From a virus (taxonomy: Duplodnaviria; Caudoviricetes), in the IMG/VR virus record IMGVR_UViG_3300017971_000082, positions 1 to 50,081 of that record: a stretch of DNA of 50,081 nt; one strand, given 5' to 3'. The position numbers and the translations under genes are program-made. This document shows, one piece after another, positions 120-40,733 of this stretch. The notes under the pieces were generated by a model. The model saw nothing but the letters and a program-made list of their open reading frames with translations, did no database searches and was not told the DNA's origin. Numbering within the stretch: the first letter of the stretch is position 1; each line of letters begins with the position of its first letter.

Positions 120-900
120 TCCAACAGCGCATTCGGGCATGCTGCCCTCCGCTCGAACACCACGGGCGAGTACAACAACGCCTTCGGGTATTACGCCCTC
201 TTCTCGAACACTACGGCATCCTACAATAACGCCTTCGGGCATTACGCCCTCCGCTCGAACACGACGGCATCCTACAACAATGCCTTCGGGTATTACGCCC
301 TCTACTCAAACACTACGGGTCAATACAACAGCGCCTTTGGGTATGCTGCCCTCCGCTCAAACACTACGGCCTCGTCCAACAGCGCATTCGGTCATTTGGC
401 GCTCTACTCGAACACCACGGGCGCGTCCAACAATGCCTTCGGGTATCAGGCCCTCTACTCGAACACCACGGCCTCGTACAACAACGCCTTCGGGCATGCT
501 GCCCTCTTCTCGAACACGGGCGAGTACAATAACGCCTTCGGGTATTACGCCCTCTACTCGAACACCACGGGCGAGTCCAACAATGCCTTTGGGCATACTG
601 CCCTCAACTCGAACACGGGTCAGCGCAACAACGCCTTCGGGTATCAGGCCCTCTACTTCAACACGACGGCATCCTACAACAACGCCTTCGGGTATAAGGC
701 CCTCTTCTCGAACACCACGGGCGAGTACAACAGCGCCTTCGGGTATAAGGCCCTCAACTCGAACACTACGGGCCAATATAACAGCGCATTCGGGCACCAG
801 GCCCTCTACCTGTCTACCGGAAATCGCAACCACGCCTTCGGTTACCTGGCTGGTGACTCTATTACGACCGGCTCGGACAACCTCTGCATCGGCTACGACG
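1..900 (+). repeat. Coding tandem repeat with 51-bp (sometimes 48-bp) units, continuing from about 49710-50081; about 22 units in total
   Basis: Direct reading of the units. 8-126 is identical to 314-432 (offset 306 = 6 x 51). Confidence 0.95.
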
Positions 901-1181
901 TTGACGTATCGGCCGCCGCCGTGACCGATGAGTTCCGCCTTGGCAACACGAACTCCAACGCCACCACGCTCTTGTGGGGCGACATGGCGAACAACCGGCT
1001 CGGCATCGGCGTCTCTTCGATCCCGGCATACAAGCTCGTGCTTGGCGGGCTTGCAAATATGGACTTCGGGGTAGAGGATTGCGATACGGCCGGGGCGACC
1101 GAGGCTGCGTGGATCAAGGTGGTTTACGATCTCGGTGGGACGCCAACGACCGGGTACATAAGGATCTACGCAACGACATGA
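1..1181 (+). CDS. 3' part of a tail fibre/adhesin-like protein with 17-aa repeats (full gene 49350 through the junction to 1181, about 597 aa)
   Basis: SNTT(G/A)xxN(N/S)AFG(Y/H)xAL repeats in frame with the ATG at 49350. It lies after the tail genes and before the ejection genes. Confidence 0.75.
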   Translation, partial: NDTGQYNSAFGYAALRSNTTASSNSAFGHLALYSNTTGASNSAFGHAALRSNTTGEYNNAFGYYALFSNTTASYNNAFGHYALRSNTTASYNNAFGYYALYSNTTGQYNSAFGYAALRSNTTASSNSAFGHLALYSNTTGASNNAFGYQALYSNTTASYNNAFGHAALFSNTGEYNNAFGYYALYSNTTGESNNAFGHTALNSNTGQRNNAFGYQALYFNTTASYNNAFGYKALFSNTTGEYNSAFGYKALNSNTTGQYNSAFGHQALYLSTGNRNHAFGYLAGDSITTGSDNLCIGYDVDVSAAAVTDEFRLGNTNSNATTLLWGDMANNRLGIGVSSIPAYKLVLGGLANMDFGVEDCDTAGATEAAWIKVVYDLGGTPTTGYIRIYATT

Positions 1182-1363
1182 GACTCACTGAAGAAGAGAA
1201 GCGTTTCCTGGTGGCGGTCCTGAGTCAGAGTAACTGGAACGTCCAGCAGAAACGCGAGTTCCAGCTCGCTGGATCCATCGTCGAGAAGCTCTCGGCTCAA
1301 CTGGAGGCCCCGCGACCAACGGTCGCCGAGCTGAAGAAGATCACCGAAGAGGAGTGCGACTGA
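1178..1363 (+). CDS. Small helical protein, possible fibre chaperone
   Basis: ATGA overlap with the fibre stop codon; 61 aa, MRLTEEEKRF... Confidence 0.65.
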   Translation: MRLTEEEKRFLVAVLSQSNWNVQQKREFQLAGSIVEKLSAQLEAPRPTVAELKKITEEECD

Positions 1364-1746
1364 TGTACTACATGCGCATTCACATGTGGGTCCGCCAGGA
1401 GATCACGCCGGCCCTGAGGGCTCAGGCGACGACCCTGCTTCGCGGAGTTCTCGACGATGTGTACGCCAACAGTGCAGCGTTCGGAGACTTCTGGTGCATT
1501 CGCCAGGGGTTCGAGCTGGAGGGCCGGGGCCGGGTCGAGGCCGAGTTCGAGTTCGACACCTACACGCACGCCGACATGAAGCAGTACCTCAGGGATCTGG
1601 TCTCCGGGAAGCCCTTGGACGCTCAGGTGCGCGTCTGGAGCAAAGACCCCGATGGAGAGGTCTTGTCGGCATCGCGCACTGGATCCACAATCGAGTGGAC
1701 CGAGTACGAGATTCCACAGCCTCCAACGGTGAGCCAGGAGGAATAG
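1363..1746 (+). CDS. Hypothetical protein
   Basis: TGATG coupling, GAGGAG upstream, typical codon usage. Confidence 0.7.
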   Translation: MYYMRIHMWVRQEITPALRAQATTLLRGVLDDVYANSAAFGDFWCIRQGFELEGRGRVEAEFEFDTYTHADMKQYLRDLVSGKPLDAQVRVWSKDPDGEVLSASRTGSTIEWTEYEIPQPPTVSQEE

Positions 1747-1749
1747 ATC

Positions 1750-2526
1750 ATGGCGTTCCCACAGCAGATGCGCGGCTTCAAGGTCCCGGGTGGCGGCGGC
1801 CGGACGGCTGATCTCCAGCAGATGGGTGCCAACTGGAACATGGGCGACAAGGCGTATCGCCGCAGCATGTGGGCTCCTGCATACACGCTCTCGGCTCTGT
1901 ACCAGAGCCCGGAGGCTCAGTCCTGGCTGAACCCTGCGGATCTTGCTTCGACGATGGGTGTCGAGTCGGCTCTAGCCGGGAGAGAGGCTCTCGGGCGCCA
2001 GGCCGGGACGGCGGCTGGCCAGCAGGGGCTCGGCCCTGGGTTCGCGGCCGGGATGGAGCAGGAGGCGATGCGGGCCTCCTTCTCGGATATCGCTTCGGCG
2101 CTGCAGGAGGCTCAGATGCTCCAGCAGGATCGCCAGTTCATGGGGGCTCGCGATCTGGCTGGGGCTGTGATGGAGGGGCAGCGTGCAGCGTTCATGCGCA
2201 ACCAGGCCAAGCGGGCGAAGAAGGGCGGCAGTGGCGGGCTGATCGGCAGTGGGGCGGGAGCCCTGATCGGCGGCGCCCTCGGCATGGTAGGTGGCCCGGT
2301 AGGAATGGCAGTCGGGGCCGGGATCGGTGGCTCGTTGGGCGGGTCCATCGGTCAGAGCGTTGACCAGATGAACGGGAGATTCTCGCCGGCTCCGAACTTC
2401 TCATCGCTCATGATGCTGCCGTTCATGATGGGCGGCATGGGTGGCGCCCCGGAGAGCACTCAGCAGGACCCGACGATGCATGGGCAGACTGGTCGGCCGG
2501 GCGGCGGGCCGGACATGCCCTGGTAG
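1750..2526 (+). CDS. Putative DNA ejection/pilot protein with a glycine zipper
   Basis: Rich in G, A, Q and M. Contains GLIGSGAGALIGGALGMVGGPVGMAVGAGIGG. It is the first of three genes in the position usual for podovirus ejection proteins. Confidence 0.65.
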   Translation: MAFPQQMRGFKVPGGGGRTADLQQMGANWNMGDKAYRRSMWAPAYTLSALYQSPEAQSWLNPADLASTMGVESALAGREALGRQAGTAAGQQGLGPGFAAGMEQEAMRASFSDIASALQEAQMLQQDRQFMGARDLAGAVMEGQRAAFMRNQAKRAKKGGSGGLIGSGAGALIGGALGMVGGPVGMAVGAGIGGSLGGSIGQSVDQMNGRFSPAPNFSSLMMLPFMMGGMGGAPESTQQDPTMHGQTGRPGGGPDMPW

Positions 2527-2535
2527 GAGACGATC

Positions 2536-5196
2536 ATGCCCAGCCCGTACAAGCAGCGCAGGCAGCAGGAGTCAGTGATCCCGGAGCGTAGCGGGCCTTC
2601 GCTCGGGGAGATGGTCTCGCAGGCGTATGCCCAGCGCGGGCAGCAGCAGATGCGCCAGGACCAGTCGGCGACGGACATGATGCAGATGGCCATGCGGATG
2701 CGCCAGATGCAGCAGGACCAGTCTCGGCAGGACTTCTACCAGGCCCTGGCCAAGGCTCAGGAGGGACGCGCCCAGGCGGGCGAGCAGCGAGCCGTCGAGC
2801 GTGAGGGGCGCGCGGCGCAGTCTCACCAACTCTCTCAGCAGCTGAGCATGGGCCAGCTGGAGATGCAGCAGCAGAGCCTGAAGCGGTCCGAGTCTGCCGA
2901 TGCGTCTCGCGAAGCCCTTGCGAACATCTTCTCGCTGACCAGCCCGCTCAAAGAGGGGCTCGCGAATCGGCGCCAGATGACGGATGCGTCTCGGATCGGG
3001 ATCTCCGAGATGGCGCAGGGCCGGCCGGAGACGATGCGCTTGCTGCAGCAGACTCACGGAGAACTGGTCGAGAAGCGGTTCGGCGAGGCTCGCAAGAAGA
3101 TCGCTCCGTTCCTCGCCAAGATGGACCCGGAGATGCGGGCCAAGGCTGAGCCGGCGATCCTGGAGTCTCTGGCGAAGCAGGAGGAGATGGAGCGCAACGC
3201 CTTCCTGCAGATCTCTCAGGAGGAGATCGATGCCATCGCTCGGCCGAACGCACTGGCGGATGCGATCGCGGCGGCGACGGCACAGCGGAAAGAGACCAAG
3301 GCTCACACGATCCAACTGGACCGAAGAATCGCGGAAGGCGAGCAGTCGTCTCCTCTTGGCGTGCAGACCCGCTGGAGATCGTTCCAGAGCGGCCCGGGAG
3401 CGTACCTTCTCGGGTCTTCTCTCAACGTCGGGGAGATAAAGAAGTATTCGGTCGGGCTGGACGGGCAGCTGAACGGCCAGATCGTTTCCAGCTTCAACGG
3501 GATAGATGTGATCAACTCGATAATGGGCCGCCACCACCTGGTGGCAGACCGGATGCTCGGTTCCAGCATGGGGAACTGGAGCGTTTCTCCGACGACGCAG
3601 ACCGATCCGCTGGTGAGCCTCTTCGCGTTCCCGATCGAGGCGAAGGAGGACGGCAGCTATGCCGGGGCGTCCCGGACCGTCACGATCGACGGCAAGACGT
3701 TCAAGTTCGAGGCCGACCCCGAGACGCTGAAGAGGTACGGCGACAAGCTCCAGGGCCTGAAAGCTCAGTTCGTCCAGATCTCGAACAAGGGGCCTCAGGG
3801 CGACATGAGCGGGAAGCGGTTCGAGGAGATGCTTGCTGCTGGAGACAAGCAGCCGAGCAAGTCGGTCATCGGCACGCTGGTCTACAACAACCTGCTCGCG
3901 TCCGGACCGAAGGGGAACAGGGATCTTCCTGCATCTGTGACGCAAGAGGATGTCATCCGAGGGCGGGACTACATCCAGGCGCTGCGCGATGTATGGGATG
4001 GCGGTCGCCTGACCGTGACGGGGCGCGACGGCAAGCCGATCAGCTACGCGAAGCCTTGGAGCCAGCGGTCGAACTGGCTGCACGAGCAGGGCATCATGAG
4101 CCAGAGCACCGCCGAGGGGCGAGCAACCTCCGAGGGTGCCCTTGCTCAGCAGGGGTTTCCTGGGATCAGCCGGGACAAGGTGATCAGCATCTCGAAGATG
4201 GTGGCTCTGGATCTTCGGAAGAACCCGGTCGTCTCGAAGATCCAGGCGTCGATCAACGATGTTCGCAAGGGGTACAAGGACAGCGGGATCACACTCAGCC
4301 CGGACCAGGAAGCGACTCTGATTTCGGAGACCTTCGATCAGGCTCTTGAGGCTCTGCTCGCTTCGGAGACCGAGGGTGGCGACTCGGAGCTTCTGCGCCG
4401 GTTCGAGGAGAGCGGCGGGGATCTCATGAGCGGGCTCGACACCTTCATCGAGGACGTGGTGAAGCCGCATGCCTACACGCAGTTCAACCGGGACCCGGCA
4501 TTGAACCAGCGGAACTACGAGCGCAGGGAACAGCTACGCAGGACGATGCTCGGGCAGACGCCTTCGAGCGTTCCGGGGCAGCAGCGGGACGTGTACCGCC
4601 GCTTCGACGAGAAGAAGTTCAGCGACGACATCGAGAAGCAGGTGATGACTCTCCTGATGGATGACCGGCGCTGGCTGGAGACGGTGCCGCACCCAGCCGG
4701 GAAGATCCCGAGCAGCGTGTTCATGGCCAGGCCGGACATCACGAACACCTGGAACACCTGGGGCACGGCGGTGCCGGGCTGGTTCGAGGGCCGGATGACC
4801 AGCAACCCGGACATGATGGATCTGGTCCACACGATCTCGATGGTCCAGCAGGATCTCTTCCGCAACCCGGGTGGGATGAACCCATCCACGCTGTCCAAGG
4901 CGATGAACGTGCTCGGCCAGCCTGGCCCGTTCACGCAGGAGGACGCTCTGGATGGGGGCGAGTACCTGGATCGCAGGTCGAGAGCCCTGAAGACACTGCT
5001 GGAGACGAACGGCAAGGCGATGCAGGACCCGCTGGTGCGGACGATCGCGGCCTGGATCAACGCGATCCCGAACCCGCAGCAGAGCATGCCGCTACCGAAC
5101 CTCGGGCAGCCGGACATCCAGGATGCCGGGCCATTCAACCCTCAGTCTGGGCTGGGGGGTGGCCAGGCCCTGCAGGGCTTGACGGGTGGACGATGA
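2536..5196 (+). CDS. Putative internal virion/ejection protein (886 aa)
   Basis: AGGAG RBS, Q/R/E-rich helical N-terminus, and position in the gene order. Confidence 0.6.
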   Translation: MPSPYKQRRQQESVIPERSGPSLGEMVSQAYAQRGQQQMRQDQSATDMMQMAMRMRQMQQDQSRQDFYQALAKAQEGRAQAGEQRAVEREGRAAQSHQLSQQLSMGQLEMQQQSLKRSESADASREALANIFSLTSPLKEGLANRRQMTDASRIGISEMAQGRPETMRLLQQTHGELVEKRFGEARKKIAPFLAKMDPEMRAKAEPAILESLAKQEEMERNAFLQISQEEIDAIARPNALADAIAAATAQRKETKAHTIQLDRRIAEGEQSSPLGVQTRWRSFQSGPGAYLLGSSLNVGEIKKYSVGLDGQLNGQIVSSFNGIDVINSIMGRHHLVADRMLGSSMGNWSVSPTTQTDPLVSLFAFPIEAKEDGSYAGASRTVTIDGKTFKFEADPETLKRYGDKLQGLKAQFVQISNKGPQGDMSGKRFEEMLAAGDKQPSKSVIGTLVYNNLLASGPKGNRDLPASVTQEDVIRGRDYIQALRDVWDGGRLTVTGRDGKPISYAKPWSQRSNWLHEQGIMSQSTAEGRATSEGALAQQGFPGISRDKVISISKMVALDLRKNPVVSKIQASINDVRKGYKDSGITLSPDQEATLISETFDQALEALLASETEGGDSELLRRFEESGGDLMSGLDTFIEDVVKPHAYTQFNRDPALNQRNYERREQLRRTMLGQTPSSVPGQQRDVYRRFDEKKFSDDIEKQVMTLLMDDRRWLETVPHPAGKIPSSVFMARPDITNTWNTWGTAVPGWFEGRMTSNPDMMDLVHTISMVQQDLFRNPGGMNPSTLSKAMNVLGQPGPFTQEDALDGGEYLDRRSRALKTLLETNGKAMQDPLVRTIAAWINAIPNPQQSMPLPNLGQPDIQDAGPFNPQSGLGGGQALQGLTGGR

Positions 5197-15479: not shown

Positions 15480-15977
15480 TCAAGCCTCGCAGACGAAGCG
15501 GTACCCGGTGGTGATGGACTGAGGCGGCCTGGGCTCGAAGCGGCAGTTGCCCTTGCCTTCCCCGTACTTCAGCTGCAGCCAGACGGTGACGGTGCACCAG
15601 TCCCACGGGGTACGGTACACATGAGTCACGGCCCCATCGTATGGGATCGACACGCCATCTTCGATAGCGTGCTGGATGGATCGTCTGCAGCTGTATCGAG
15701 AGTTGTGGCGCCGCCACCCAAGCTCGGCCAGCTCTCGGACGATCTGCTTGCCGATCAGGGTGAACTCTTCACCCGGGATCTCGAAGCGGACAGCGATGCT
15801 GATCCCACCTCCCCATGATGCGGTGATGTGGGTCTTCTCGAACCACTTGGGGAACTCGCGCCTCATCTGCGGTTCGAGCTTCTCCCAGAAGCCCCGGCAG
15901 ACGTTCAGGCGTGAGAGCTGCTTGTTCAGCTTGATGATCTCTTCGGTAAGCTCATCGAACTTCTGACGCTTGATCAT
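15480..15977 (-). CDS. Hypothetical protein
   Basis: Start context AAGGAGATGAGCC-ATG. Confidence 0.75.
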   Translation of the reverse strand: MIKRQKFDELTEEIIKLNKQLSRLNVCRGFWEKLEPQMRREFPKWFEKTHITASWGGGISIAVRFEIPGEEFTLIGKQIVRELAELGWRRHNSRYSCRRSIQHAIEDGVSIPYDGAVTHVYRTPWDWCTVTVWLQLKYGEGKGNCRFEPRPPQSITTGYRFVCEA

Positions 15978-15996: not shown

Positions 15997-16020
15997 GGAG
16001 CCTGGCAGGCGCCAGGCTCC
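15997..16020 (-). terminator. Intergenic hairpin, possible terminator or processing stem
   Basis: GGAGCCTGG-CAGGCG-CCAGGCTCC, 9-bp stem, weak U tract. Confidence 0.4.
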
Positions 16021-16036: not shown

Positions 16037-17191
16037 CTAGGCTTCGACCAGTTCAAGCTCTTTCTTGTCACGGATGCCGAGCATGATCCCGGAGAGCTGC
16101 TCCAGGTCGGCTCGGCGATCCTCGCTGATCTCGCTGGACTGTCCCAGGAAGCTCAGCGCGTTGGCCAGGCGCCACTTGGTCGCCTTGCCTGAGGGGATCT
16201 CGTTCTCGTCGTTGCGGCTGAGCACGGCGTTCACCTGCTCTGCCTCGGCCTTGCTGATGCGCTTGGCCTTCACCAGACCCTTGATCTCGGCCTCGGGCTC
16301 GATCTCCTCCTGAGCGGCGATTGCGAGGGGAGCCAGGCGGTTCTGAAGGGCTTGCGGCTGCAGCACGGACTGGACAGCATCCCGGATCATGCCGGCGCTG
16401 CGCAGCGTGTCGTGGCGGAAGGTGTCCTCTGCGATGGTGATGTCATCGGGCAGCCGCATGCCCAGATGCACCTCACGCAGCATCTTCTCACCGACCATGC
16501 CGTTGATGCAGGCGAGGCGAACGACCTTGAAGGCAAGCTCCTGGCCGCTCGCACCGAAGTCGGAGCTTCTCAGCGCCATGCCGACCCCGAGGTAGTCCAC
16601 GCCACCTGGCGTCTGCAGGGGGATGGGGTGGGGCAGGATCATCTCCATGCTCCACTTGATCTCGTCGTAGCTCGCCCGGTAGGGCTTCATCTGGAGCCTT
16701 CTGGCGGCTTCGAGGAACGAGGCGATGATGTCCACGCTATTCAGGCGCCGATACTGATCGCTGAGCACGCCTCGGATCTGGTTGTCCACGCTGCGGATCA
16801 GCATCCGCTCCCTGGTCTTCGTGTTCGCCAGGGTGGTCGAGATGGCATCTGCGACGACCATGCGTTGCCAGGGCTCTCCGTCGATCCAGTTCTTGAGGTT
16901 GCTGCCCCGTCCGAGCAGGTCGAGCTTTTCGGCGAACTGCCTCAGGGCGTGGCTGTGGAAGTGATTGGGCTCGGTGTCTCCGTTGAACAGCAGGCCGACC
17001 CGGTTCTTGCCGTCCACGGTCACCTCGATGGGCGTGGAGCTGCCGTTCTGGCCGACCTTGACGATGCGATCCTTCACGGGCTCTTGCTCAAGCCTCTCGA
17101 TGGTCGCTGTGGCTCTCTGGCGGCCCGTCTCGACCATCTGGTCGATCCTCTGGGTCACCTTCTCTTTCGAGACGATTTCTCGCTGGTTCAT
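16037..17191 (-). CDS. DUF932-like phage/plasmid protein
   Basis: IRGVLSDQYRRLNS, SDFG, RLACINGMV and HLG motifs. Confidence 0.75.
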   Translation of the reverse strand: MNQREIVSKEKVTQRIDQMVETGRQRATATIERLEQEPVKDRIVKVGQNGSSTPIEVTVDGKNRVGLLFNGDTEPNHFHSHALRQFAEKLDLLGRGSNLKNWIDGEPWQRMVVADAISTTLANTKTRERMLIRSVDNQIRGVLSDQYRRLNSVDIIASFLEAARRLQMKPYRASYDEIKWSMEMILPHPIPLQTPGGVDYLGVGMALRSSDFGASGQELAFKVVRLACINGMVGEKMLREVHLGMRLPDDITIAEDTFRHDTLRSAGMIRDAVQSVLQPQALQNRLAPLAIAAQEEIEPEAEIKGLVKAKRISKAEAEQVNAVLSRNDENEIPSGKATKWRLANALSFLGQSSEISEDRRADLEQLSGIMLGIRDKKELELVEA

Positions 17192-23804: not shown

Positions 23805-24071
23805 ATGCCGGACCTGAAATTCGATGGAGAACAAGAGCACTTCGCCTGTTCTCACGACGACCCAGAGTTTGAATTAAAGATCCGCACCTACTGGATGAAC
23901 GGACGCCCGCAGCTGGACATCCGCTGGTTCCAGAGGTTCCATACGGTCTCGGGAGGCAGATTCTGGCAGCCCACCCGCAAGGGTCTGCGGGTACCCTTCG
24001 ACATGCTCACCCTGGTCGAGAAAGGGCTCTCGATGGTCCCCAAGGATCTGGAGGAACCAGATGATCGGTAG
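23805..24071 (+). CDS. PC4/YdbC-family ssDNA-binding protein
   Basis: LDIRWF...WQPTRKGLRVP matches the PC4 signature; GGAG RBS. Confidence 0.8.
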   Translation: MPDLKFDGEQEHFACSHDDPEFELKIRTYWMNGRPQLDIRWFQRFHTVSGGRFWQPTRKGLRVPFDMLTLVEKGLSMVPKDLEEPDDR

Positions 24072-24390
24072 GAACAAGAACCCAGAACCGAAACCCTCAG
24101 AGGCGAACGAGCGCATCCGCCAGGCCCGCGCCGAGCTGCTCCTGAGCCTCAAGCCACAGGTCGAGAAGATGCAGTCCGGAGGGCTCTCGTCCGTCCAGGT
24201 GCTTCACCTGCTCCAGAACGTCCTGGCCGCCAACATGTTCGATGCCCGAGCTTCGGCCTCCAACCAGGCGGTCGCTGGCCTCCTGAGGGTCACGACCGAG
24301 GGGGCGCACTTCATGGCCGACGTGAAGGCCCTGCAGGAAGCCGTCGATGACGCGCTGAACCAGGCGACCGGCGGGGCGGCAACCAGATGA
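24061..24390 (+). CDS. Putative terminase small subunit
   Basis: Helical 109-aa protein coupled directly to TerL; called on position only. Confidence 0.5.
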   Translation: MIGRNKNPEPKPSEANERIRQARAELLLSLKPQVEKMQSGGLSSVQVLHLLQNVLAANMFDARASASNQAVAGLLRVTTEGAHFMADVKALQEAVDDALNQATGGAATR

Positions 24391-25496
24391 GGATCGAACC
24401 CGACGACCTGATCACGTTCGGCCCGTTCATGGGGTTCGGCCACGACGAGGCTCGCGAGTTCGTCGAGCGCGTCGAGTTCCGCATCCGCCGGGAGCACGAC
24501 CCGGCCCTGATCCGCAACGAAGCCTTCATCGACCTGTCGAAAAACCGCCCCCTCGAAGATCTCATCCAGCGGTGGATCTGGGTCAACTCGAAGTTCACCG
24601 GCCACACCGCGCTGCGCATGGACATGCCCCACGCTTGGGCGCAGCTCGAAGTCGTCCGCTACATCGACAAGTGCTGGAAGGACGGGCGACCGTGCCGCAT
24701 CGTGATCCTCAAGGCCCGCCGCCTGGGCATGACCACCATCTTCGTCTGCGTCTTCTTCCTCATGGCCTCGGTCATGGAGCGCATGGACTCCCTGATCATC
24801 TCGGACATCGACGAGCACGCCCGCAAGGCGAAGGACATGGCCGTCTACGCCCTCGATCACATGGTCTACGGGCCGCGATGCAAGGCCACCAAGGAAGGGA
24901 TCAAGTGGCCCAAGCCGCAGTACGGCAACCTGGACATCGAGTCCTCCGAGGGGCGCAACCCCGGGCGCGGCCTGGGTTACAACATGGTGCTCTTCGACGA
25001 GGTGGCCCACTACGTCCGGGACGCCAACAAGATCGTCTCCGACGTGATCGCCGCCGTGCCCAAGTCCGGGTTCAGCCTCATCGCCCAGAATTCCACGCCC
25101 AAGGGGGCCGGCGGGCACTTCTATCGCCTGTACCGGCGCGCGAAGAAGGAGGAGTCCGAATACAAGCACTTCTTCTTCTCCTGGCTCCGGCATCCGGCTT
25201 ACGCGATCCCGCTGCGCGATGAGGACTACCCGCGCTTCGAGAAGCTCTCCGAGCGCGAGACCTCGCTCATGGAGCACCACGGGATGAACCTGGAGCAGGC
25301 GAAATTCCGTCGCTTCGTCGTGGATACCGAGTACAACGGGCAGGAGGAGATCTTCGATCAGGAGTACCCGGTGGACGATATCTCCTGCTTTCTCCGGGCT
25401 GGCCGGCCGGTTTTCGACCCGGATACCATGTTGCTGGTTGACCAGCGCGTGTCTAAGATCGAGCCCGTCTTGCAAGGCGATTTAGTCGAGATCTGA
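24387..25496 (+). CDS. terL: Terminase large subunit, ATPase domain only
   Basis: AQ motif, Walker A ILKARRLGMTT, Walker B VLFDEVAH, coupling motif NSTPKG, FDQEYP; TGA stop before any nuclease domain. Confidence 0.9.
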   Translation: MRIEPDDLITFGPFMGFGHDEAREFVERVEFRIRREHDPALIRNEAFIDLSKNRPLEDLIQRWIWVNSKFTGHTALRMDMPHAWAQLEVVRYIDKCWKDGRPCRIVILKARRLGMTTIFVCVFFLMASVMERMDSLIISDIDEHARKAKDMAVYALDHMVYGPRCKATKEGIKWPKPQYGNLDIESSEGRNPGRGLGYNMVLFDEVAHYVRDANKIVSDVIAAVPKSGFSLIAQNSTPKGAGGHFYRLYRRAKKEESEYKHFFFSWLRHPAYAIPLRDEDYPRFEKLSERETSLMEHHGMNLEQAKFRRFVVDTEYNGQEEIFDQEYPVDDISCFLRAGRPVFDPDTMLLVDQRVSKIEPVLQGDLVEI

Positions 25497-25513
25497 CTCA
25501 GAGAGGTACCATC

Positions 25514-25729
25514 ATGAAAGGCTCAGGCGCCGCAACCCATCGCTCCGGGGCGCACTTCGACGATCGGGGCTACACCGCCCACAACTCGAAGTGTTCTCCC
25601 CCCACCTCGGGCAAGGAGAGCCACTCCTTCCCCACCCCCTCGCCGAGCGATCACTGCAACCCGAGGCTCGGGCAGTTCAAGGACGTGGCGTCCTCGGGCC
25701 AGCCGGCCGGGAAGACCAAGACGTTCTAG
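25514..25729 (+). CDS. Small Ser/Gly/Pro-rich protein between the two TerL halves
   Basis: GAGAGG RBS, genome-typical codons, 71 aa. Confidence 0.55.
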   Translation: MKGSGAATHRSGAHFDDRGYTAHNSKCSPPTSGKESHSFPTPSPSDHCNPRLGQFKDVASSGQPAGKTKTF

Positions 25730-25762
25730 GCTCGCCGGACTTCGCTACTCCGGCTCATCTCC

Positions 25763-25797
25763 AGAGCCCTACCGGAGATTCGGGCCGGTAGGGCTCT
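25763..25797 (+). terminator. Strong hairpin, terminator-like
   Basis: AGAGCCCTACCGG / CCGGTAGGGCTCT, 13-bp stem, followed by TCTT and then the ATG at 25802. Confidence 0.6.
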
Positions 25798-25801
25798 TCT
25801 T

Positions 25802-26656
25802 ATGGCATTCAAGGTCGTACCCCACCCAGACAGCCCGCTTCAGGTCTGGTTCCCACCAGACAACAAGCGGCTCTACTCGATCGGCGTCGATGTCAGCGAC
25901 GGGGGCGGGCACGGCAGCCGGTGGGGAGCCGACGCCTTCGGATCACGGCCAGCCGCTTCGACCGTCGTGGTCACCGATGCCGCCACCCGGATCCAGTGCG
26001 CGGAGTATCAGACCTGGAGCCTGCTGCCGCGCGATCTCGGGATCCTCGTCGCCCGCATGGGCCGCTGGTACAAGGGGCGCGAGACCGAAGCCTTCTGCGT
26101 GATCGAGGCCAACAAGAGCGGCATCTCGACCATCGACGCGATGCGCTACGAGGAGGGCTACTCGAACCTCTACACCCGCAGGACGTTCGATTTCGTGGCC
26201 CAGAAGTTCTCGAACAAGATCGGCTGGGAGACCACCCAGAAGACCCGGCCGGTCCTGGTGAACATCGCGAGAACCGCATACAAGGAGCTTCCGGAGATCG
26301 TCATGTCCCAGAGGCTGCAGGAGGAGATCCGATCCTTCCTGTTCCAGGAGACATCCCCAGGCTCCGGAGACTTCCGCCCCATGCACGCTCCGGGCGAGCT
26401 GGATGATCTGGTCATCGCCTGGGGACTCTCGCTGTTCGGCTGCGACTACGCCCTCGCGTCACAGCCCGAAGATCGCCCCAAGCTGGACGAGCCCCCCGAT
26501 GCCTGGGCCTGGAAGGCCACAGACCGGATACTAGACGGGCAGCGCCAGCAACGGCAGTATGGCCACCTGTACTCAGAAGACGAGCAGCCGATGGCTGCGG
26601 ACACCGAGATCATCGAGCCCGGCCAGATGCAGGTCCCGGCTTGGATGTGGGAGTAG
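25802..26656 (+). CDS. terL: Terminase large subunit, RNase H-like nuclease domain
   Basis: YSIGVDVSDG, VIEANKSG, KIGWETTQKTRP, DDLVIAWGL. Confidence 0.88.
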   Translation: MAFKVVPHPDSPLQVWFPPDNKRLYSIGVDVSDGGGHGSRWGADAFGSRPAASTVVVTDAATRIQCAEYQTWSLLPRDLGILVARMGRWYKGRETEAFCVIEANKSGISTIDAMRYEEGYSNLYTRRTFDFVAQKFSNKIGWETTQKTRPVLVNIARTAYKELPEIVMSQRLQEEIRSFLFQETSPGSGDFRPMHAPGELDDLVIAWGLSLFGCDYALASQPEDRPKLDEPPDAWAWKATDRILDGQRQQRQYGHLYSEDEQPMAADTEIIEPGQMQVPAWMWE

Positions 26657-26660
26657 CGAA

Positions 26661-26981
26661 ATGATCGAATGGGTCGCCCTGATTGCCCTGGTCATCATGG
26701 CCCTGGTCTGCGCCGCTGTGCTCTTCGGCGCCTTCGTCGTCGTCCGAACCCTGGCTCACGCTCTGCAGGAAGCTCACAAGAAGGTCATGGCCCGCGACCT
26801 GACCGACCTGATGAACGCAGAAGCCAGCTCGCACTATCTCTCCGCAACCCCTGGCGGAAATAACAACATCGACTGGAATGCCGTCCGAAAGAGCCCCGAG
26901 TTCCAGAGGATGGTCAACCAGACACTGAACGAGTACGAGAGCCGGTCTTCACCGTTCCCGTACCCAGGCCAGGAGGGATAA
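26661..26981 (+). CDS. Small membrane protein
   Basis: N-terminal hydrophobic helix; located just before the portal gene. Confidence 0.65.
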   Translation: MIEWVALIALVIMALVCAAVLFGAFVVVRTLAHALQEAHKKVMARDLTDLMNAEASSHYLSATPGGNNNIDWNAVRKSPEFQRMVNQTLNEYESRSSPFPYPGQEG

Positions 26982-26984
26982 GCC

Positions 26985-29039
26985 ATGCTCGGTGGGCTCA
27001 TGGACACCGTGGGGTTCGGCAACAGCTCGAAGTCCTACCACCCGAAGTACATCCCCAAGCCCTCGGAAGAGCGCGTCCTCAACCTGGTGAAGGAACGCTG
27101 GGAAGGCGACATGGACGCCTCGCGCCAGCAGTTCGAGCGGATCTGGTTCAACGCCGCTCAGATCTACCAGGGGGACTTCTCGGGCTTCTGGAACACCGCC
27201 ATGCGGCATGTGGAGAAGACTCCGGTGCCGTCGTGGCGCAAGCGGTACATCGCGAACAAGATCCTGCCAGCGGTCAAGCGTGCCGTCTCGATGACGGTAG
27301 GCACGGGCGCCAGGCCCTCGGTCGTCCCAGGCGGCCCAGGCAAGCTCCACCGGGACCGCGCCAAGCTCGCCGAGAAGATCTGGGAGTCCTACGCCCGCAA
27401 GAAGAAGTTCGTCACCAAGCAGCAGTACGGGGCTCTCGTCGCCTGCTGCTCGGGCACCGTCCTGTTCAAGCCCTTCTGGGATCCGGCCAAGGGCAAGATC
27501 GTCGGGATGAAGGGCAACCGCATCGTCACCGAGGGAGACGTGGACTGGAAGGTCGTGAGCCCGCTGAACTTCTACCCCGAGCCACAGGCCAAGAACATCG
27601 AGGAGTGCCAGTACGCCTTCCACACCTACATGATGTCGATCGATGCGATGCGGCAGCGGTGGAAGAACGCCGAGTACGTGCGGCCGGACTCTGGCGACAC
27701 GGGCACGCGCGGATGGATCGAGAGGCGCATGCGCTCGATCTCCTCGGCCGGCTCGATCATCACCGAGCCCGCCACGCGCCGGGGCCGCCAGTACGCCACC
27801 GTCGTCGAGATGTGGATCCGCCCGAGCCCGGACGTTCCCAGGGGCATGTTCGCGGCCGTCTCGAACAACGTGGTCCTGGAGCACGGGCCGAACCCTGGCC
27901 TCGGACTCGACGAGGAGCGGGTTCTGGAGATCCCCTTCATCAAGTACGACTGGTTCGAGGGGTACGAGCGGTTCTGGGGCGTGGGCCTGGTCGAGCTGCT
28001 GGATCGGATCAGCCGGGAGGAGAATTCGACCAAGAGCCGGATCATCGAGGCCGCCATCCTCATGGCGCATCCGATGTGGCGCGCTCCCAAGCAGAGCGGC
28101 CTCGGGGATGTCGTCGGCTTCCCGGGCCAGATCCTGAAGTACAACCCGGCCTTCCCGCCGCCCGAGGTCGTCCAGCCGCCCGAGATTCCAGCCTACGTCA
28201 TGAACATGCCCGCGATGTTCGACCAGGACTTCAAGGACGTTTCGGCGCAGCACGACGTGACCCAGGGCCAGGCGTCGAATGCACGCACCGGCACGGCCAT
28301 CCAGCTGCTCCAGCAGCCAGACGAACTGGTTCACTCGACCGGGCGCATGCGCTTCTGGGAGGCAAGCTCGGACATCGCGCGCAGCTTGCTGGTCCTGATG
28401 AAGGAGAACTACACCGAGCAGCGGATCGCCGAAGTCGCCGGCCCCAACGACTCCTGGCAGATCATCGCCTTCCGAGGGGGCGACCTGGACAAGTCCACCA
28501 ACATCCGGTTCGTCATGGACACGAGCCTCGGGCTCACGAGAGCCTCTCGTCTCGGGATCCTCTCGGACCTGATCAACCTCCAGGCGATCAACATGGGCGA
28601 CCCCTTCGAGCGGCGCCATGCGGTTCGCATGCTGGAGTCCAACGATCTCGACCAACTCTTCAGCTCGCTCACGATCGCCGAGCGCGAGGCCGAGGAGGAG
28701 ATCGCCATCATGTCCCAGGTGAGCGAGGGGCTCCCGCCCAGGATCCCGACCTTCCCCTGGCAGGATCACGTCGTCCACGTCCGGCTCAAGAACGAGTTCC
28801 GGATGACCCCCGAGTACAAGATGCTGCCAACGGTCGTGCGGCAGCTGTTCGATGCGAACGTGATGGAGCATGAGATGCTCATGCTGCAGCAGCAGCAAGT
28901 CATGCAGCAGCAGCAGATGGCCACGCGCGGGATGCCCGGCGAAGTCGGGACCCCCTCCCCCCCGAAGAACAGCAGCAAGCCGCCGGGCGGATCCCAGCAG
29001 AGCGGGTCTGAGGCCCGGCCGCAGGCAGGAGTGGCATGA
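26985..29039 (+). CDS. Portal protein
   Basis: 684 aa after the terminase; NKILP, G...FKPFWDP, VSPLNFYPEP, FWGVGLVELL, TGTAIQLL motifs; Q-rich tail. Confidence 0.85.
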   Translation: MLGGLMDTVGFGNSSKSYHPKYIPKPSEERVLNLVKERWEGDMDASRQQFERIWFNAAQIYQGDFSGFWNTAMRHVEKTPVPSWRKRYIANKILPAVKRAVSMTVGTGARPSVVPGGPGKLHRDRAKLAEKIWESYARKKKFVTKQQYGALVACCSGTVLFKPFWDPAKGKIVGMKGNRIVTEGDVDWKVVSPLNFYPEPQAKNIEECQYAFHTYMMSIDAMRQRWKNAEYVRPDSGDTGTRGWIERRMRSISSAGSIITEPATRRGRQYATVVEMWIRPSPDVPRGMFAAVSNNVVLEHGPNPGLGLDEERVLEIPFIKYDWFEGYERFWGVGLVELLDRISREENSTKSRIIEAAILMAHPMWRAPKQSGLGDVVGFPGQILKYNPAFPPPEVVQPPEIPAYVMNMPAMFDQDFKDVSAQHDVTQGQASNARTGTAIQLLQQPDELVHSTGRMRFWEASSDIARSLLVLMKENYTEQRIAEVAGPNDSWQIIAFRGGDLDKSTNIRFVMDTSLGLTRASRLGILSDLINLQAINMGDPFERRHAVRMLESNDLDQLFSSLTIAEREAEEEIAIMSQVSEGLPPRIPTFPWQDHVVHVRLKNEFRMTPEYKMLPTVVRQLFDANVMEHEMLMLQQQQVMQQQQMATRGMPGEVGTPSPPKNSSKPPGGSQQSGSEARPQAGVA

Positions 29040-31159: not shown

Positions 31160-32599
31160 ATGGCGGGCATCGACGAAGCATACGTCGGAGCAACCAGAGC
31201 CGCGTACCAGGCGGCCCTGAAGGATTACTACCTCCCGTCCATCATCGTCACGTTCAACTCTTCGACGGTGCTCTACTACCGCGCGGAGAAGTCGAGCGAG
31301 CCGGTGGTCGGCGGGACAATCCAGCTCCTCCTCAACACCAAGCGGTCCGAGGGCTACGGCTCCATCCGCTACGGTGGACGCATCCCGGATCCCGATCGCC
31401 AGGGATACACCCGGATGCAGTTCCCGATCCGCTACCACTACGCGCGGATCAAGGTCCCGGGGCCGCTCATGGCCGAGACCCGCGATCCGGCGGGTGCGTG
31501 GGGCGAGGTTGTCGATCTCGAAGTCACGGGTGTTTCCCGCGACGAGAAGAACGACATCAACCGCCAGCTCTTCAACGACGGCTCAGGCCGCCTCGCGATC
31601 GTCACCGACGCCACCCAGCAGGCGGCCGGCATCCTGCAGCTGCGCGAGGTCTTCGACCTGGCCGACCAGGCGCCGGACGTGATGACCGTTCGCGACGGCA
31701 TGATGGTTGCAATCGTGGATGCCTCGGTTTCCACGACCAGCCCGGTCGCCGCGAACATGTTCGACGACATGAGCGGTACCGGCATTCGCCAGGCGATCGT
31801 TGGCAACACCGACCCGCAGGCGAAGACCATCACGCTCTTCCCCATCGACACCTCGACGGGCGGCCCCCAGGGCACCCCGTACACCCTCGCAGGCGTGGCG
31901 GCCGGTGATGCGATCGTGCGCGTCCACGTGCGCGACAACAACATCCGGACTTCCAGCGCCCTGTTGGACGAGTGCGCGTACCGCCACTCGACCGCTCCGG
32001 CGACCGACGAGGGCGCCTCGGGTCGCGAGATGATGGGGCTCGCCGGGATGGTCAGCGCGCAGGACGTGTTCTGCGGCTACAACCTCGGCGCGGTCACCAC
32101 CACGGGTCTCCAGAACATCTCGGTTGCCTCGGGCAACCCGTTCTGGAAGGCGTTCACGATCGACTACGGCGCAGCGCCGCAGCCGCTCGACCTGAACGAC
32201 ATGCAGACCTGCGTGGACCAGATGGAGCGCCTGGGCCAGGCGTTCTGCACCCTGATCGTCACCTCCTACGGTGGCCGCCGCGCGTACCTGCGGACCTTCG
32301 CAGCCGAGCGCCGCTACCCCGACGTGATGGATCTCGACGGCGGCTTCAAGGCTCTCAGCTTCAACGGGCTCCCGCTGGTGCCCGAGAAGGACTGCACGGC
32401 CGGCCGCTTCTACTTCCTGGACGAGACCACGCTTCTGATCGCTCGCATGAGCGAGTGGTTCTGGCTCGCCCGCGACAACGCCATCCTGCACCGGCTCGAC
32501 GACTACGATGCCTGGCAGGCGACCCTCGCGTACTACGCAGACTACTGCCTCCGCAAGCGCAACGCGCTCGCGGGCCTCTTCGGTGTACAGGAGAGCTAG
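31160..32599 (+). CDS. Major capsid protein (HK97 fold inferred)
   Basis: ALKDYY, DINRQLFNDGSG, EMMGLAGMV, LDGGFKALSFNGLPLVPEKDC..GRFYFLD motifs; position in gene order. Confidence 0.85.
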   Translation: MAGIDEAYVGATRAAYQAALKDYYLPSIIVTFNSSTVLYYRAEKSSEPVVGGTIQLLLNTKRSEGYGSIRYGGRIPDPDRQGYTRMQFPIRYHYARIKVPGPLMAETRDPAGAWGEVVDLEVTGVSRDEKNDINRQLFNDGSGRLAIVTDATQQAAGILQLREVFDLADQAPDVMTVRDGMMVAIVDASVSTTSPVAANMFDDMSGTGIRQAIVGNTDPQAKTITLFPIDTSTGGPQGTPYTLAGVAAGDAIVRVHVRDNNIRTSSALLDECAYRHSTAPATDEGASGREMMGLAGMVSAQDVFCGYNLGAVTTTGLQNISVASGNPFWKAFTIDYGAAPQPLDLNDMQTCVDQMERLGQAFCTLIVTSYGGRRAYLRTFAAERRYPDVMDLDGGFKALSFNGLPLVPEKDCTAGRFYFLDETTLLIARMSEWFWLARDNAILHRLDDYDAWQATLAYYADYCLRKRNALAGLFGVQES

Positions 32600-39689: not shown

Positions 39690-40732
39690 GTACAGCAGTA
39701 ACCCTTCGAGAGCTTGTAATCGACCAGGCCAGCGGGTCCTACACGGGACTCGCAGGCGAACTGTGGCTGTTGCCCGAGACGGGGGACTCGCGGGACAAGG
39801 CGATCCTCAAGGGGCTGGAACTCGTCGAGCCGGTTGCTGGACTCGGGCCTGTCATCCTCCGACTGTTCGACGTGAACGCTCTGGCGAGGGAGGCAGCAAC
39901 GATCACGTTCTCTGCCCAGCCGGCGGACACGAACCTTCTCACCTACACGGATCCATACCACACGGCTGTCATCTTCGAGTATGACAGCACGGGAGCCTTC
40001 ACTGCTGGGCGCCAGCCGGTCTTGATCGGATCGACGTTCTACGAGACGGCCAGGAACACCTATCTGGCCATCCTTCGGAACATCGAAGATGGGGTGATGC
40101 CTGGTATCGCTGCGATCGTTCCGGAGAGCATCACGCTCGGGGCTGCTGGAGTGGACACCCATACCCTGACGGTGACGGATGGGACCACGACCTACATCTT
40201 CGAGCTGGACAACAACGGAGCCTGGACGGCTGGGAACATCCCGGTGCCGATCGGAGGGACGGCAGCCGCGACGACCGCGAACCTCCTCGAACTTCTGAAG
40301 TCGTGCTTCCCGAACAACGAACTCGTCACCCATTCGATCGACCCTGCCGCGCCCGGGAAGATCTGGATCCACGGTGTCCAATGTACGGTTGGCGGTGCGA
40401 CGTTCACCGTGACCAGGCCGATTGTCACATTCCGGACGCTGCTTCCTGGATCCACTGCGCAGCATGGTGGGGGCACAGGTCTTTTCGTTGCGGGCGCGGC
40501 ATCGCCCGTTGTCGCGACCGCAGGCGGCGCCGCTCTCCCTGGCGCGGTCATCGCTGCCGAGTATGGTCTCTATCATCCTGGAGACATCCTCGAAGTGAAT
40601 CGTCAGTTCGACGGAGGGATCTTCGCCCAGGTCACGACCGGAGCGAACGCGCGAGTGAAGCTCCTCTTCGAGTACATGGGACAGGGCCGCCTCAGTGGCC
40701 GGACCTACGGCAAGTCCACAGCGCAGTATTGA
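39686..40732 (+). CDS. Virion protein with two copies of the shared module
   Basis: IFEYDSTGAFTAG..VLIG and IFELDNNGAWTAGNIPVPIG. Confidence 0.6.
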   Translation: MSTAVTLRELVIDQASGSYTGLAGELWLLPETGDSRDKAILKGLELVEPVAGLGPVILRLFDVNALAREAATITFSAQPADTNLLTYTDPYHTAVIFEYDSTGAFTAGRQPVLIGSTFYETARNTYLAILRNIEDGVMPGIAAIVPESITLGAAGVDTHTLTVTDGTTTYIFELDNNGAWTAGNIPVPIGGTAAATTANLLELLKSCFPNNELVTHSIDPAAPGKIWIHGVQCTVGGATFTVTRPIVTFRTLLPGSTAQHGGGTGLFVAGAASPVVATAGGAALPGAVIAAEYGLYHPGDILEVNRQFDGGIFAQVTTGANARVKLLFEYMGQGRLSGRTYGKSTAQY

Positions 40733-40733
40733 G

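Follow-up and report, generated by a model that had tools for sequence, protein, structure and literature searches.

Introduction

The large terminase subunit (TerL), the standard marker gene of tailed phages, is assumed to be a single chain, as in T4 gp17, where ATPase and nuclease form a single polypeptide. The closest described departures from this organization come from cultured phages. In the plaque-forming cluster AY Arthrobacter phages the two TerL domains are encoded by two consecutive genes (PMC11920828); in BillyTP (GenBank PP978841) these are genes 2 and 3. In the isolated Parabacteroides phage phiPDS1, the large terminase is annotated as two coding sequences, one per domain; its authors did not study the split, suspecting either a different genetic code or a faulty assembly (PMC10773633). 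Group I introns or inteins interrupt terL in the Jug phages (PMC12880540) and in Staphylococcus phage Twort (PMC13729910), and inteins do so in cyanophage Mic1 (PMC7156551). In the latter cases terL likewise occupies several genomic ORFs; however, the pieces are rejoined at the level of RNA or protein, whereas the locus described here matches no intron family and an intein is excluded. A further parallel is nrdA of Aeromonas phage Aeh1, the gene of an essential enzyme, which was reportedly split by a free-standing homing endonuclease; its two translated chains are said still to assemble, and the gap contains foreign genes. Here, by contrast, there is no endonuclease gene, and most relatives lack a gap altogether.

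We analyzed a window comprising the whole 50,081-nt IMG/VR virus record IMGVR_UViG_3300017971_000082, which represents an uncultured phage and in which the ATPase and nuclease genes follow one another and adjoin the portal gene, as in the cluster AY phages, where they are adjacent or overlapping like those of most relatives of the window. The reading that we favor, with a probability of about 0.8, is that the two parts of the large terminase are translated separately and reassemble non-covalently, that this arrangement is conserved, and that the intergenic gap serves as a cargo slot.

Results

Two ORFs on the plus strand carry the two terminase domains: terL-N, the 369-residue ATPase chain (24387–25496), which ends in GDLVEI followed by TGA (25494–25496), and terL-C, the 284-residue nuclease chain (25802–26656). 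They lie in different frames, 305 nt apart. The intervening sequence holds one ORF of 71 residues (25514–25729) with its own ribosome-binding site, an SD-like AGAGG (25502–25506) 7 nt 5′ of its ATG, and a hairpin with a perfect, GC-rich 13-bp stem and a 9-nt loop (25763–25797). Every element described in the first-pass annotation is present, and all coordinates given there hold. On the same strand, the ATPase gene is preceded by a 109-residue ORF without assigned function (24061–24390), the stop codon of which overlaps the ATPase start (ATGA) and for which no PHROG or Pfam match was obtained. The nuclease gene is followed on the plus strand by a small ORF (26661–26981; the ATG after GGGAG was chosen as start) with no family in PHROG or Pfam at the thresholds used, and then by the portal protein gene (26985–29039, plus strand; phrog_156, E = 1.6e-29); the major head protein is encoded at 31160–32599 (phrog_14242, E = 1.7e-43). 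The position of the portal gene places the split terminase inside a normal packaging module.

The two domains are thus not on one chain, as in a canonical TerL, but in consecutive ORFs, each with its own start and stop codon, with one extra small ORF between them. That small ORF shares its frame with the nuclease, the sole stop codon between them being the TAG at 25727–25729, just as had been pointed out from the sequence at the outset. The ATPase frame is the +1 neighbor of this shared frame, and the nuclease therefore lies at −1 relative to the ATPase. It is also correct that a GAG ATT (25775–25780) lies in the nuclease frame and that removal of 287 nt (25488–25774) would give a single reading, ...DLVEIRAGRALLMAFKVV.

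The ATPase ORF matches phrog_2, terminase large subunit, with E = 5.8e-12, and a profile of 12 relatives matches the T4 gp17 structures 3ezk, 2o0h and 3cpe with E values of 6e-17 to 2e-15, with the same order of domains and a gene near that of the portal; a tblastn search with the ATPase matched 354 phage records, most of them annotated as TerL. K109, R111, G114, T117, E205 and T237 are invariant in the 12-row alignment, and the P-loop stretch aligns with the SRQLGKT region of gp17. We take K109, R111, G114 and T117 to be the P-loop and E205 the catalytic glutamate of the ATPase. The C-terminal strand of this chain, PVLQGDLVEI, corresponds to the strand that opens the nuclease domain in unsplit relatives; compared with gp17, the chain is cut inside the first β-hairpin of the nuclease. 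The second ORF probably encodes the RNase H-like nuclease: it matches phrog_24361, terminase (E = 1.2e-4), its tblastn matches are the C-terminal halves of annotated TerL genes, and D30, E102, D201 and D202 are invariant in a 15-row alignment. The catalytic motifs are hence retained in both halves, in line with what had first been noticed. Pfam returned no match for the ATPase, the nuclease or the 71-residue ORF. Both halves show genic codon usage, with a codon score of 1.02 and a GC3 of 0.91 for the ATPase.

The arms of the hairpin (25763–25775 and 25785–25797) are perfectly complementary, and 4 nt (TCTT) separate it from the nuclease ATG at 25802. The 101-nt region around it folds with −39.9 kcal/mol (z = −2.78), a value equaled by 3 of 200 shuffled sequences, and the hairpin is more than a chance structure, which bears out its initial description as strong. 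Among 25 of the 29 inverted pairs with arms at most 15 nt apart, there is one other perfect looped stem, of 10 bp (15997–16020). The possibility that the arm is a repeated genome element was rejected: allowing up to two mismatches, it has four matches in the genome, two of which are the arms themselves, compared with 1.9 expected. A terminator scan gave one site against 1.6 expected, covering only part of the stem, and lends no support to a role as terminator. By a count made by eye, 12 of 19 gene starts have a GGAG/GAGG-type site 6–15 nt upstream. The nuclease ATG has none, confirming that no Shine–Dalgarno sequence is evident there; the only SD-like bases in its vicinity are buried in the hairpin, and the nuclease is the sole gene of the module to lack both an SD and stop–start coupling. 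An SD-less ATG 4 nt past a structured region could mean poor or no independent initiation, and throttling of nuclease translation by the hairpin appears plausible.

The 71-residue ORF looks coding. Its codon score is 0.44 per codon with a GC3 of 0.89, a score reached by none of 1790 out-of-frame windows of 71 codons, while 9% of 895 in-frame windows score lower. The protein looks disordered (pLDDT 0.23 in the Atlas model), and the Atlas gave no usable lead. It has no PHROG match either, and in a search of 5.8 billion proteins, a set in which proteins of a sister phage are present, its only match was itself. The spacer is present once in the genome. A strain 98–99% identical to the window has no differences over 25800–26050 and diverges directly upstream, 25800 being a loose contig end; no contig from sequencing runs X3–X5 spans 25476–25727. 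Seven strain differences could be translated, three synonymous and four not, too few to be used.

The arrangement was compared with that in relatives obtained from a scan of 1.84 billion protein representatives, which yielded 3548 relatives. The best seven of these 3548 (368–400 residues) share the end point of the query, with tails such as GDLAEF, GQLLEVIS, GDIVEALAG and GDILD immediately before the stop codon. ORFs with the ATPase and no nuclease match account for 33 of the best 150 representatives, some of which sit on short contigs, and all 33 terminate 0–79 residues past the common strand G-[DNH]-[IL]; for one cluster member the source record gives both start and stop codon. In the sister phage, the ATPase is 75% identical (368 residues, against 369 here) with the same ORF end, and the nuclease is 76% identical, has 284 residues as in the window and starts at the same site, with MSFKVV. 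The clade of the window comprises nine rows of a FastTree tree, all of them split. In another clade, represented by 19 IMG/VR loci (L035–L053), 18 are split at the same site and one, L052, is unsplit with a single open frame of 545 residues. With nuclease start codons that are the analyst's choices in these relatives, 13 of the split loci have a stop/start overlap of 1 or 4 nt; the others comprise one with a 13–16-nt gap, one with a 26–53-nt overlap, two with spacers of about 230 nt and one with a spacer of 868 nt. The split is consequently not a one-off break: it is kept in the sister phage, in the nine-row clade and in 18 of the 19 loci. How often fission occurred independently is uncertain, as the tree is a FastTree reconstruction of deep divergences.

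The same split, for which the first-pass annotation had recommended a search, is found among relatives (the 33 of the best 150 representatives and the 18 loci). The annotation had treated the small gene and the hairpin as what splits terL, a view that the relatives contradict, the split being older than both. It had also conceded that many homologs split alike would remove the novelty; most of the novelty indeed goes, while the split itself is real.

In the 17 loci where ATPase and nuclease share one frame, the two parts abut. In L023 seven codons separate the positions equivalent to ATPase residue 369 and nuclease residue 7, and in L008 three codons separate ATPase residue 366 from nuclease residue 4; placed end to end, the two halves fit the unsplit relatives within −3 to +1 residues. 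Nothing is missing at the cut. Where a spacer is present, its content varies: L045 and L046 have a different ORF of 72–84 residues and the spacer of L053 has three ORFs. In L019, a contig from a Vicinamibacteria MAG, the ATPase lies at 470–1759, an ORF of 62 residues at 1756–1944 and the nuclease at 1951–2772, followed by the portal gene. Its small ORF is also in frame with the nuclease and also ends in TAG, a feature absent from the other spacer-bearing loci examined, and BLASTP gave no alignment between the small ORFs of the window and of L019. If two chains are made, this shared frame and TAG are left to chance, which for the frame alone amounts to about 1 in 9. The gap contains unrelated small ORFs in different lineages and is best read as a changeable slot, with the 71-residue ORF as its cargo; small gene and hairpin are later additions to an older, shared split.

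Additional searches gave no close relatives: viral contigs with the window ATPase, with its sister-phage counterpart, and with a pattern over the hairpin arm and ATG; a protein search limited to longer proteins; metagenome contigs with a two-row alignment and a 26-nt pattern; and genome contigs with one of the relatives (P0040).

Co-modeling of the two chains, a check proposed at the outset, gave a complex score of 0.80, against 0.00 for the best of three controls; of 157 solved complexes 116 attain this mark, as do 2 of 215 mismatched pairs. At least 85% of contacts are common to the runs, and the pLDDT of the partner is 72 or higher. Contacts in the model connect ATPase residues 360–369 with nuclease residues 1–8 and 11–18, including the pairs 362:15, 364:13 and 360:16. 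The split halves resemble solved unsplit TerL, and the pass may stem from the model's memory, so the score speaks for likeness to an unsplit TerL and not for binding.

Discussion

A terL that appears in pieces may still yield a single protein. An intein is ruled out by the different frames of the halves and by the TGA and TAG between them. For a self-splicing or otherwise excised intron in the 305-nt spacer, the restoration of one TerL frame demands a length of 2 mod 3, which the 308 nt from 25494 to 25801 satisfy, and a 361-nt region folds somewhat better than its shuffles (z = −2.45); however, the covariance models of group I and group II introns have no match in 25300–26000, and cmscan of this interval with E values up to 10 returned no Rfam family, only a lone chance miRNA match of 15 bits. 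Moreover, the ORF within the spacer has genic codon usage and a ribosome-binding site of its own, in relatives cut at this position the stop and start codons overlap and a spacer is absent, and the sister phage retains the same ORF ends. We consider an intron very unlikely, and neither group I or II intron nor intein had been discerned in the initial inspection. Recoding could fuse the chains in two ways, by a hop from GAG ATC (25488–25493) to GAG ATT (25775–25780), or by a −1 shift near the ATPase stop followed by read-through of the TAG. The putative take-off codon directly precedes the stop (ATC-TGA, 25491–25496), a matching Ile codon after GAG (ATT, 25778–25780) lies in the nuclease frame inside the hairpin loop, no stop interrupts the −1 frame between 25457 and the TAG at 25727, with the nuclease next in the same frame, and L019 too has an in-frame small ORF ending in TAG. 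The bypass gap of T4 gene 60 is 50 nt. The 287-nt hop would be about six times as long, and its product would gain eight residues where abutment already fits. Matched codons with a stop after take-off are thus present, if weakly, but the short gap and conserved signals of a bypass are not: relatives have unrelated spacers or overlaps, and those with a 1–4-nt overlap lack a landing site as well as any sequence conservation ahead of the stop. The GAGAT[CT] match among 24 codons was recognized post hoc, and a synonymous codon is likely to occur by chance. As to a −1 shift, there are no X XXY YYZ heptamers in the 369 codons of the ATPase frame, and the −1 frame is closed by the TAG (25727–25729) before the nuclease is reached. 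TAG ends the nuclease gene and several others and is a working stop; its use as a sense codon was rejected, read-through merely running genes into their neighbors. Recoding is accordingly regarded as extremely unlikely, and the suggestion of a non-canonical splicing or recoding event finds no support in the missing Rfam match and heptamer, the ordinary TAG stop and the fit of the abutted halves. In most relatives there is no room for splicing or hopping, because stop and start codons overlap.

The locus could also be a terL broken by a recent insertion, in a defective phage or a decaying prophage, given that a stop codon and 305 nt that look foreign interrupt what is normally a single gene and that the nuclease start has no SD. 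Yet the 50,081-bp record has terminal repeats and represents a complete genome, every catalytic residue is retained, and both halves keep genic codon usage; the ORF boundaries are the same in the sister phage at 75–76% protein identity and the nine-row clade is split throughout, and the phage or near-identical strains were found in runs of several studies. Such decay is highly improbable. A chimeric or misjoined spacer might be suspected in a metagenome-derived genome, one strain variant of which differs just upstream of 25800, and confirmation with raw reads had been advised at the outset. The assembly holds: runs X1 and X2, from two studies, contain 100% of 88 sampled words, and a 26,812-nt contig of X2, a run that may itself be the source of the record, spans 24300–26800 with no differences and no reported joints. 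The 71-residue and the nuclease proteins are each found on three contigs, and the same architecture recurs in unrelated assemblies, which leaves a negligible chance for an artefact.

A terminase of two separately translated chains thus remains the preferred reading, and the earlier proposal of a two-subunit terminase is strengthened by a fission that the sister phage and many more distant relatives share. The ATPase chain (24387–25496) would keep the linker and the first nuclease β-strand, PVLQGDLVEI, and the nuclease chain (25802–26656) would begin at the next strand. We infer that both chains are produced and that they assemble by strand donation, the donated strand running antiparallel to nuclease residues 13–17; no covalent link would be involved, and the reassembled pair would work like an ordinary TerL. 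The fission is inherited, being present in the whole nine-member clade of the window, and the same loop appears to have been cut or rejoined repeatedly within this gp17-like TerL family. The gap would then be permissive, with genes overlapping by 1–4 nt in most relatives and unrelated small genes taken up in some lineages. The most likely effect of the hairpin would be lower translation of the nuclease than of the ATPase, or else partial termination or stabilization of the upstream transcript; it and the 71-residue protein are assigned their roles by inference.

More speculatively, and in our estimation rather unlikely, the fission is functional and not neutral, setting the dose of nuclease apart from that of the motor ATPase. 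The hairpin-masked, SD-less start would keep the nuclease below the ATPase and give a packaging ring with fewer nuclease than ATPase modules, and the gap, re-used repeatedly, would provide a protected place for the late expression of small accessory proteins, e.g., the 71-residue protein, which might tune or guard the terminase. The bolder and far less likely variant, in which the 287-nt ribosomal hop fuses the chains, is scarcely credible.

For the window alone, the analysis mostly clarifies the picture: the split is an old one shared with relatives, and nothing indicates unusual splicing or recoding. Within this gp17-like family, however, roughly one in five of the best environmental relatives is a two-gene form, and the cut always falls in one loop; such phages will be mis-scored by gene callers, marker-gene phylogenies and completeness tools expecting a protein of about 600 residues. 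The presence of one nuclease strand on the ATPase chain offers a natural test of whether a packaging motor can work as a non-covalent pair and whether nuclease and ATPase can be dosed independently. Small late-expressed accessory genes may also be worth seeking in the gap.

A two-gene terminase is already in print for cluster AY, and the window is a further case, in which the split is real but shared. It also resembles phiPDS1 in having one coding sequence per TerL domain. BLASTP (best E = 12) and hhalign (probability 0.5%) detect no similarity between the window and the cluster AY terminase, and because there is no detectable kinship, the latter represents an independent fission in another TerL lineage. 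In BillyTP the two genes overlap by 17 nt, without spacer, small ORF or hairpin, and the cut falls about 10 residues before the strand of the first catalytic Asp, whereas the nuclease chain of the window retains about 29 such residues and two strands.

Organization of the terL locus

The window record is a complete 50,081-bp virus with terminal repeats, and the sequence bears out the layout that the first-pass annotation had described for its large terminase gene, terL. The ATPase ORF (24387..25496, 369 aa) ends ...PVLQGDLVEI-TGA and is followed by a 71-aa ORF (25514..25729) that starts 7 nt past AGAGG; a perfect 13-bp hairpin with a 9-nt loop (25763-75 and 25785-97) comes next, and the nuclease ORF (25802..26656, 284 aa) begins 4 bases 3' of it. 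The 71-aa ORF and the nuclease share one frame with a single TAG between them, and the nuclease is at -1 relative to the ATPase frame. The layout also holds in sequencing runs: all 88 sampled words of 25200-26100 are present in two of them, from two studies. A 26,812-nt contig, whose run may be the source of the window, covers 24300-26800 with no difference and no joint, and the 71-aa protein and the nuclease protein are each recorded on 3 contigs.

In PHROGs, phrog_2 (terminase large subunit, 5.8e-12) matches the ATPase half and phrog_24361 (terminase, 1.2e-4) the nuclease half, and successive parts of one profile of unknown function, phrog_38407, match the ATPase half and then the nuclease half; Pfam returned zero matches for the ATPase, 71-aa and nuclease ORFs. 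A profile built from the window ATPase and 11 relatives matches T4 gp17 structures with E 6e-17 to 2e-15, and in neither half do the catalytic residues vary. The packaging module is considered normal, since genes for a portal (phrog_156, 1.6e-29) and a major head protein lie downstream of terL. The 50-kb genome also holds three very long ORFs, at 5200-12228 (2342 aa), 40695-44708 (1337 aa) and 44711-48823 (1370 aa).

The same split in relatives

A phmmer scan of 1.84 billion protein representatives yielded 3548 relatives of the window ATPase, the best seven of which (368–400 aa) align up to the query C-terminus and extend no further; tails of the best relatives read GDLAEF*, GQLLEVIS*, GDIADLQEAP*, GDIVEALAG* and GDILD*. 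When the best 150 of the 3548 were sorted with profiles of the ATPase and nuclease halves, 33 proved to be ATPase-only, i.e., without a nuclease match and ending 0–79 residues past the G-[DNH]-[IL] strand, 7 were ambiguous, and 110 continue into the nuclease, 7 of them truncated by a contig end past nuclease onset. The search for the same split that the first-pass annotation had suggested thus finds it to be common and not private to the window. Several ATPase-only forms are on 30–50 kb contigs and one has its start and stop codon recorded by the source; others lie on short contigs, and for this reason not every such call is certain. In the sister phage, the ATPase (P0001) has 368 aa and 75% identity to that of the window, and the nuclease (P0165; N-terminus MSFKVV) has exactly 284 aa and 76% identity; one residue in four has thus changed without a shift in the ORF ends. 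Two ATPase-only proteins with the usual end strand, P0127 (644 aa) and P0131 (709 aa), carry N-terminal extensions of ~300–360 residues ahead of the ATPase domain.

DNA was compared for a subset of the relatives. Among 19 IMG/VR loci of a clade around the representative P0128, with which they share 39–59% identity (about 27% with the window), 18 are split, all at the same strand as in the window, and one, L052, is unsplit with a single 545-aa open frame. With the nuclease start taken by us as the start codon closest to the ATPase stop, the two genes overlap by 1 or 4 nt (TGATG, ATGA, GTGA) in 13 loci and by 26–53 nt in one; they are separated by 13–16 nt in one, by spacers of about 230 nt with a 72–84-aa ORF in two, and by an 868-nt spacer with three ORFs in L053. 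The first of these three (L053:1910-2209) has a weak, below-threshold match to DUF6496 (E 0.01; 16.7 bits, where the cut-off is 24). Another locus, L019, comes from a Vicinamibacteria MAG contig; its ATPase ORF (470..1759) shares the overlap ATGA with a 62-aa ORF (1756..1944, stop TAG), and the nuclease (1951..2772, start TTG) begins 6 nt after the latter, with the portal next. The gap ORF here (L019:1756-1951) is in the nuclease frame and ends in TAG, the same as in the window, which could be coincidence or a common mode of translational coupling. Seventeen other loci have the ATPase and nuclease halves in a single continuous frame. In one of these relatives (L023), ATPase residue 369 and nuclease residue 7 have seven codons between them, and in another (L008) there are three between residues 366 and 4; therefore the window halves abut, with nothing lost and a few residues spare at most.

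In a FastTree phylogeny built from 286 columns of the ATPase core, without the strand at the cut, the window belongs to a clade of nine rows that are all split (support 96). Of 144 labelled rows, 34 are split, namely the window and 33 representatives; their distribution requires 11 state changes, at least 7 of them forced by well-supported branches, whereas label shuffles need 30.5 on average and never fewer than 26. We read this as one loop that has been cut repeatedly, or cut and re-fused, the count of events not being firm given such deep divergences and a fast method. P0112 (645 aa) and P0031 (625 aa) are unsplit, yet lie inside otherwise split clades, which suggests re-fusion, or several fissions within those clades.

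One chain or two

The first-pass annotation had left two readings, a two-subunit terminase or halves rejoined by splicing or recoding. The latter is not supported in the window phage. Rfam gives no family match in the split region even at E 10, and an intein is ruled out by the frame change and the stops. There is no X XXY YYZ heptamer in the ATPase frame, and the -1 frame is open from 25457 only and is closed by TAG before the nuclease; genome-wide recoding of TAG is rejected because the nuclease gene and others end in it. The 287-nt arithmetic of the first-pass annotation is correct, but a ribosome hop of that length fusing ATPase and nuclease would rest on a GAGAT[CT] match among 24 codons, and its product would contain 8 extra residues where zero are needed. 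Moreover, neither splicing, intein, frameshift nor hop would be able to work in relatives whose genes overlap; for the window phage alone, splicing or recoding is improbable.

The two-subunit reading, by contrast, is supported by the conserved ORF ends in the sister phage and by the split in those overlapping-gene relatives. The nuclease fold is cut after its first strand, so that the ATPase chain would keep this strand, the nuclease chain would begin after it, and the two would be held together through strand donation. In a predicted two-chain complex, ATPase 360-369 packs antiparallel against nuclease 1-8 and 11-18 (pairs 362:15, 364:13 and 360:16), with at least 85% contact agreement between runs and partner pLDDT of at least 72. 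The model scores 0.80, and the highest of its 3 controls 0.00; 116 of 157 solved complexes attain the former mark, as do 2 of 215 mismatched pairs. Modeling of the two halves, as proposed in the first-pass annotation, shows that the pieces still fit the family fold; it is no demonstration of binding, because the split halves resemble solved unsplit TerL structures. We infer that terL probably encodes two chains joined by strand donation. In one split clade (P0010, P0026, P0131) an acidic tail of 64–79 residues extends past the putatively donated strand, replacing the nuclease.

Comparison with known two-gene terminases

Cluster AY Arthrobacter phages are described as having ATPase and nuclease terminase domains in two consecutive genes (PMC11920828), and genes 2 and 3 of GenBank PP978841 are annotated accordingly. 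Their proteins show no similarity to those of the window, so the two arrangements arose independently. For phage phiPDS1, two terminase CDS are reported, for which its authors suspected a code or assembly issue (PMC10773633); terL split by group I introns and inteins is well documented (PMC12880540, PMC7156551, PMC13729910). A word-match search of open-access text found no study of two-gene terminases within the gp17-like family, nor one of repeated cuts at the same terL loop. The initial observation is confirmed, and the terminase of the window is one more of the two-gene kind, in a lineage where this state is old and common.

The gap and the hairpin

Codon usage of the 71-aa ORF is genic (0.44 per codon, GC3 0.89), its score being reached by 0 of 1790 out-of-frame windows, with 9% of 895 in-frame windows lower, and its RBS is normal; on these grounds we take it to be a real gene. 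It has no family in Pfam or PHROG, no similarity to the small ORF of L019, and no homologue but itself at 39–125 aa among 5.8 billion proteins, a collection that contains the flanking terL proteins of the sister phage; its structure model is of very low confidence. A strain in sequencing run X3, 98–99% identical elsewhere in terL, has 0 differences in 25800-26050, and the 30 letters shown upstream of 25800 differ save for GTAGGGCTCTTCT, so that in 25750-25800 only part of the hairpin 3' arm is retained. Since spacer contents differ among loci and in this strain, the gap changes quickly, both between lineages and between strains, and, for the loci compared here, fits a slot for small accessory genes. 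That of the window carries a lineage-specific small gene and a hairpin.

The hairpin region folds with -39.9 kcal/mol (z = -2.78), equaled by 3 of 200 shuffles. The spacer occurs once in the window genome, where the hairpin arm likewise is no repeated motif. A clear SD precedes 12 of 19 gene starts inspected, and most of the 7 others overlap the stop before them or lie directly against it. Neither holds for the nuclease start, whose nearest SD-like bases sit within the hairpin stem. A ribosome halting at TAG 25727 would be 33 nt short of the stem, and a simple terminator scan of the window did not single out the hairpin. The hairpin most likely lowers nuclease translation, and could instead terminate or stabilize the upstream transcript. 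If terL is indeed two chains, a translational throttle is the leading, still tentative, role for it; a transcript end or stabilizer is only a little less likely, as is a passive leftover from the event that inserted the 71-aa ORF. Among the 25 listed of 29 short-range inverted repeats, the sole other perfect stem-loop (15997-16020, 10 bp, 4-nt loop) lies between the minus-strand ORFs 15480..15977 and 16037..17191.
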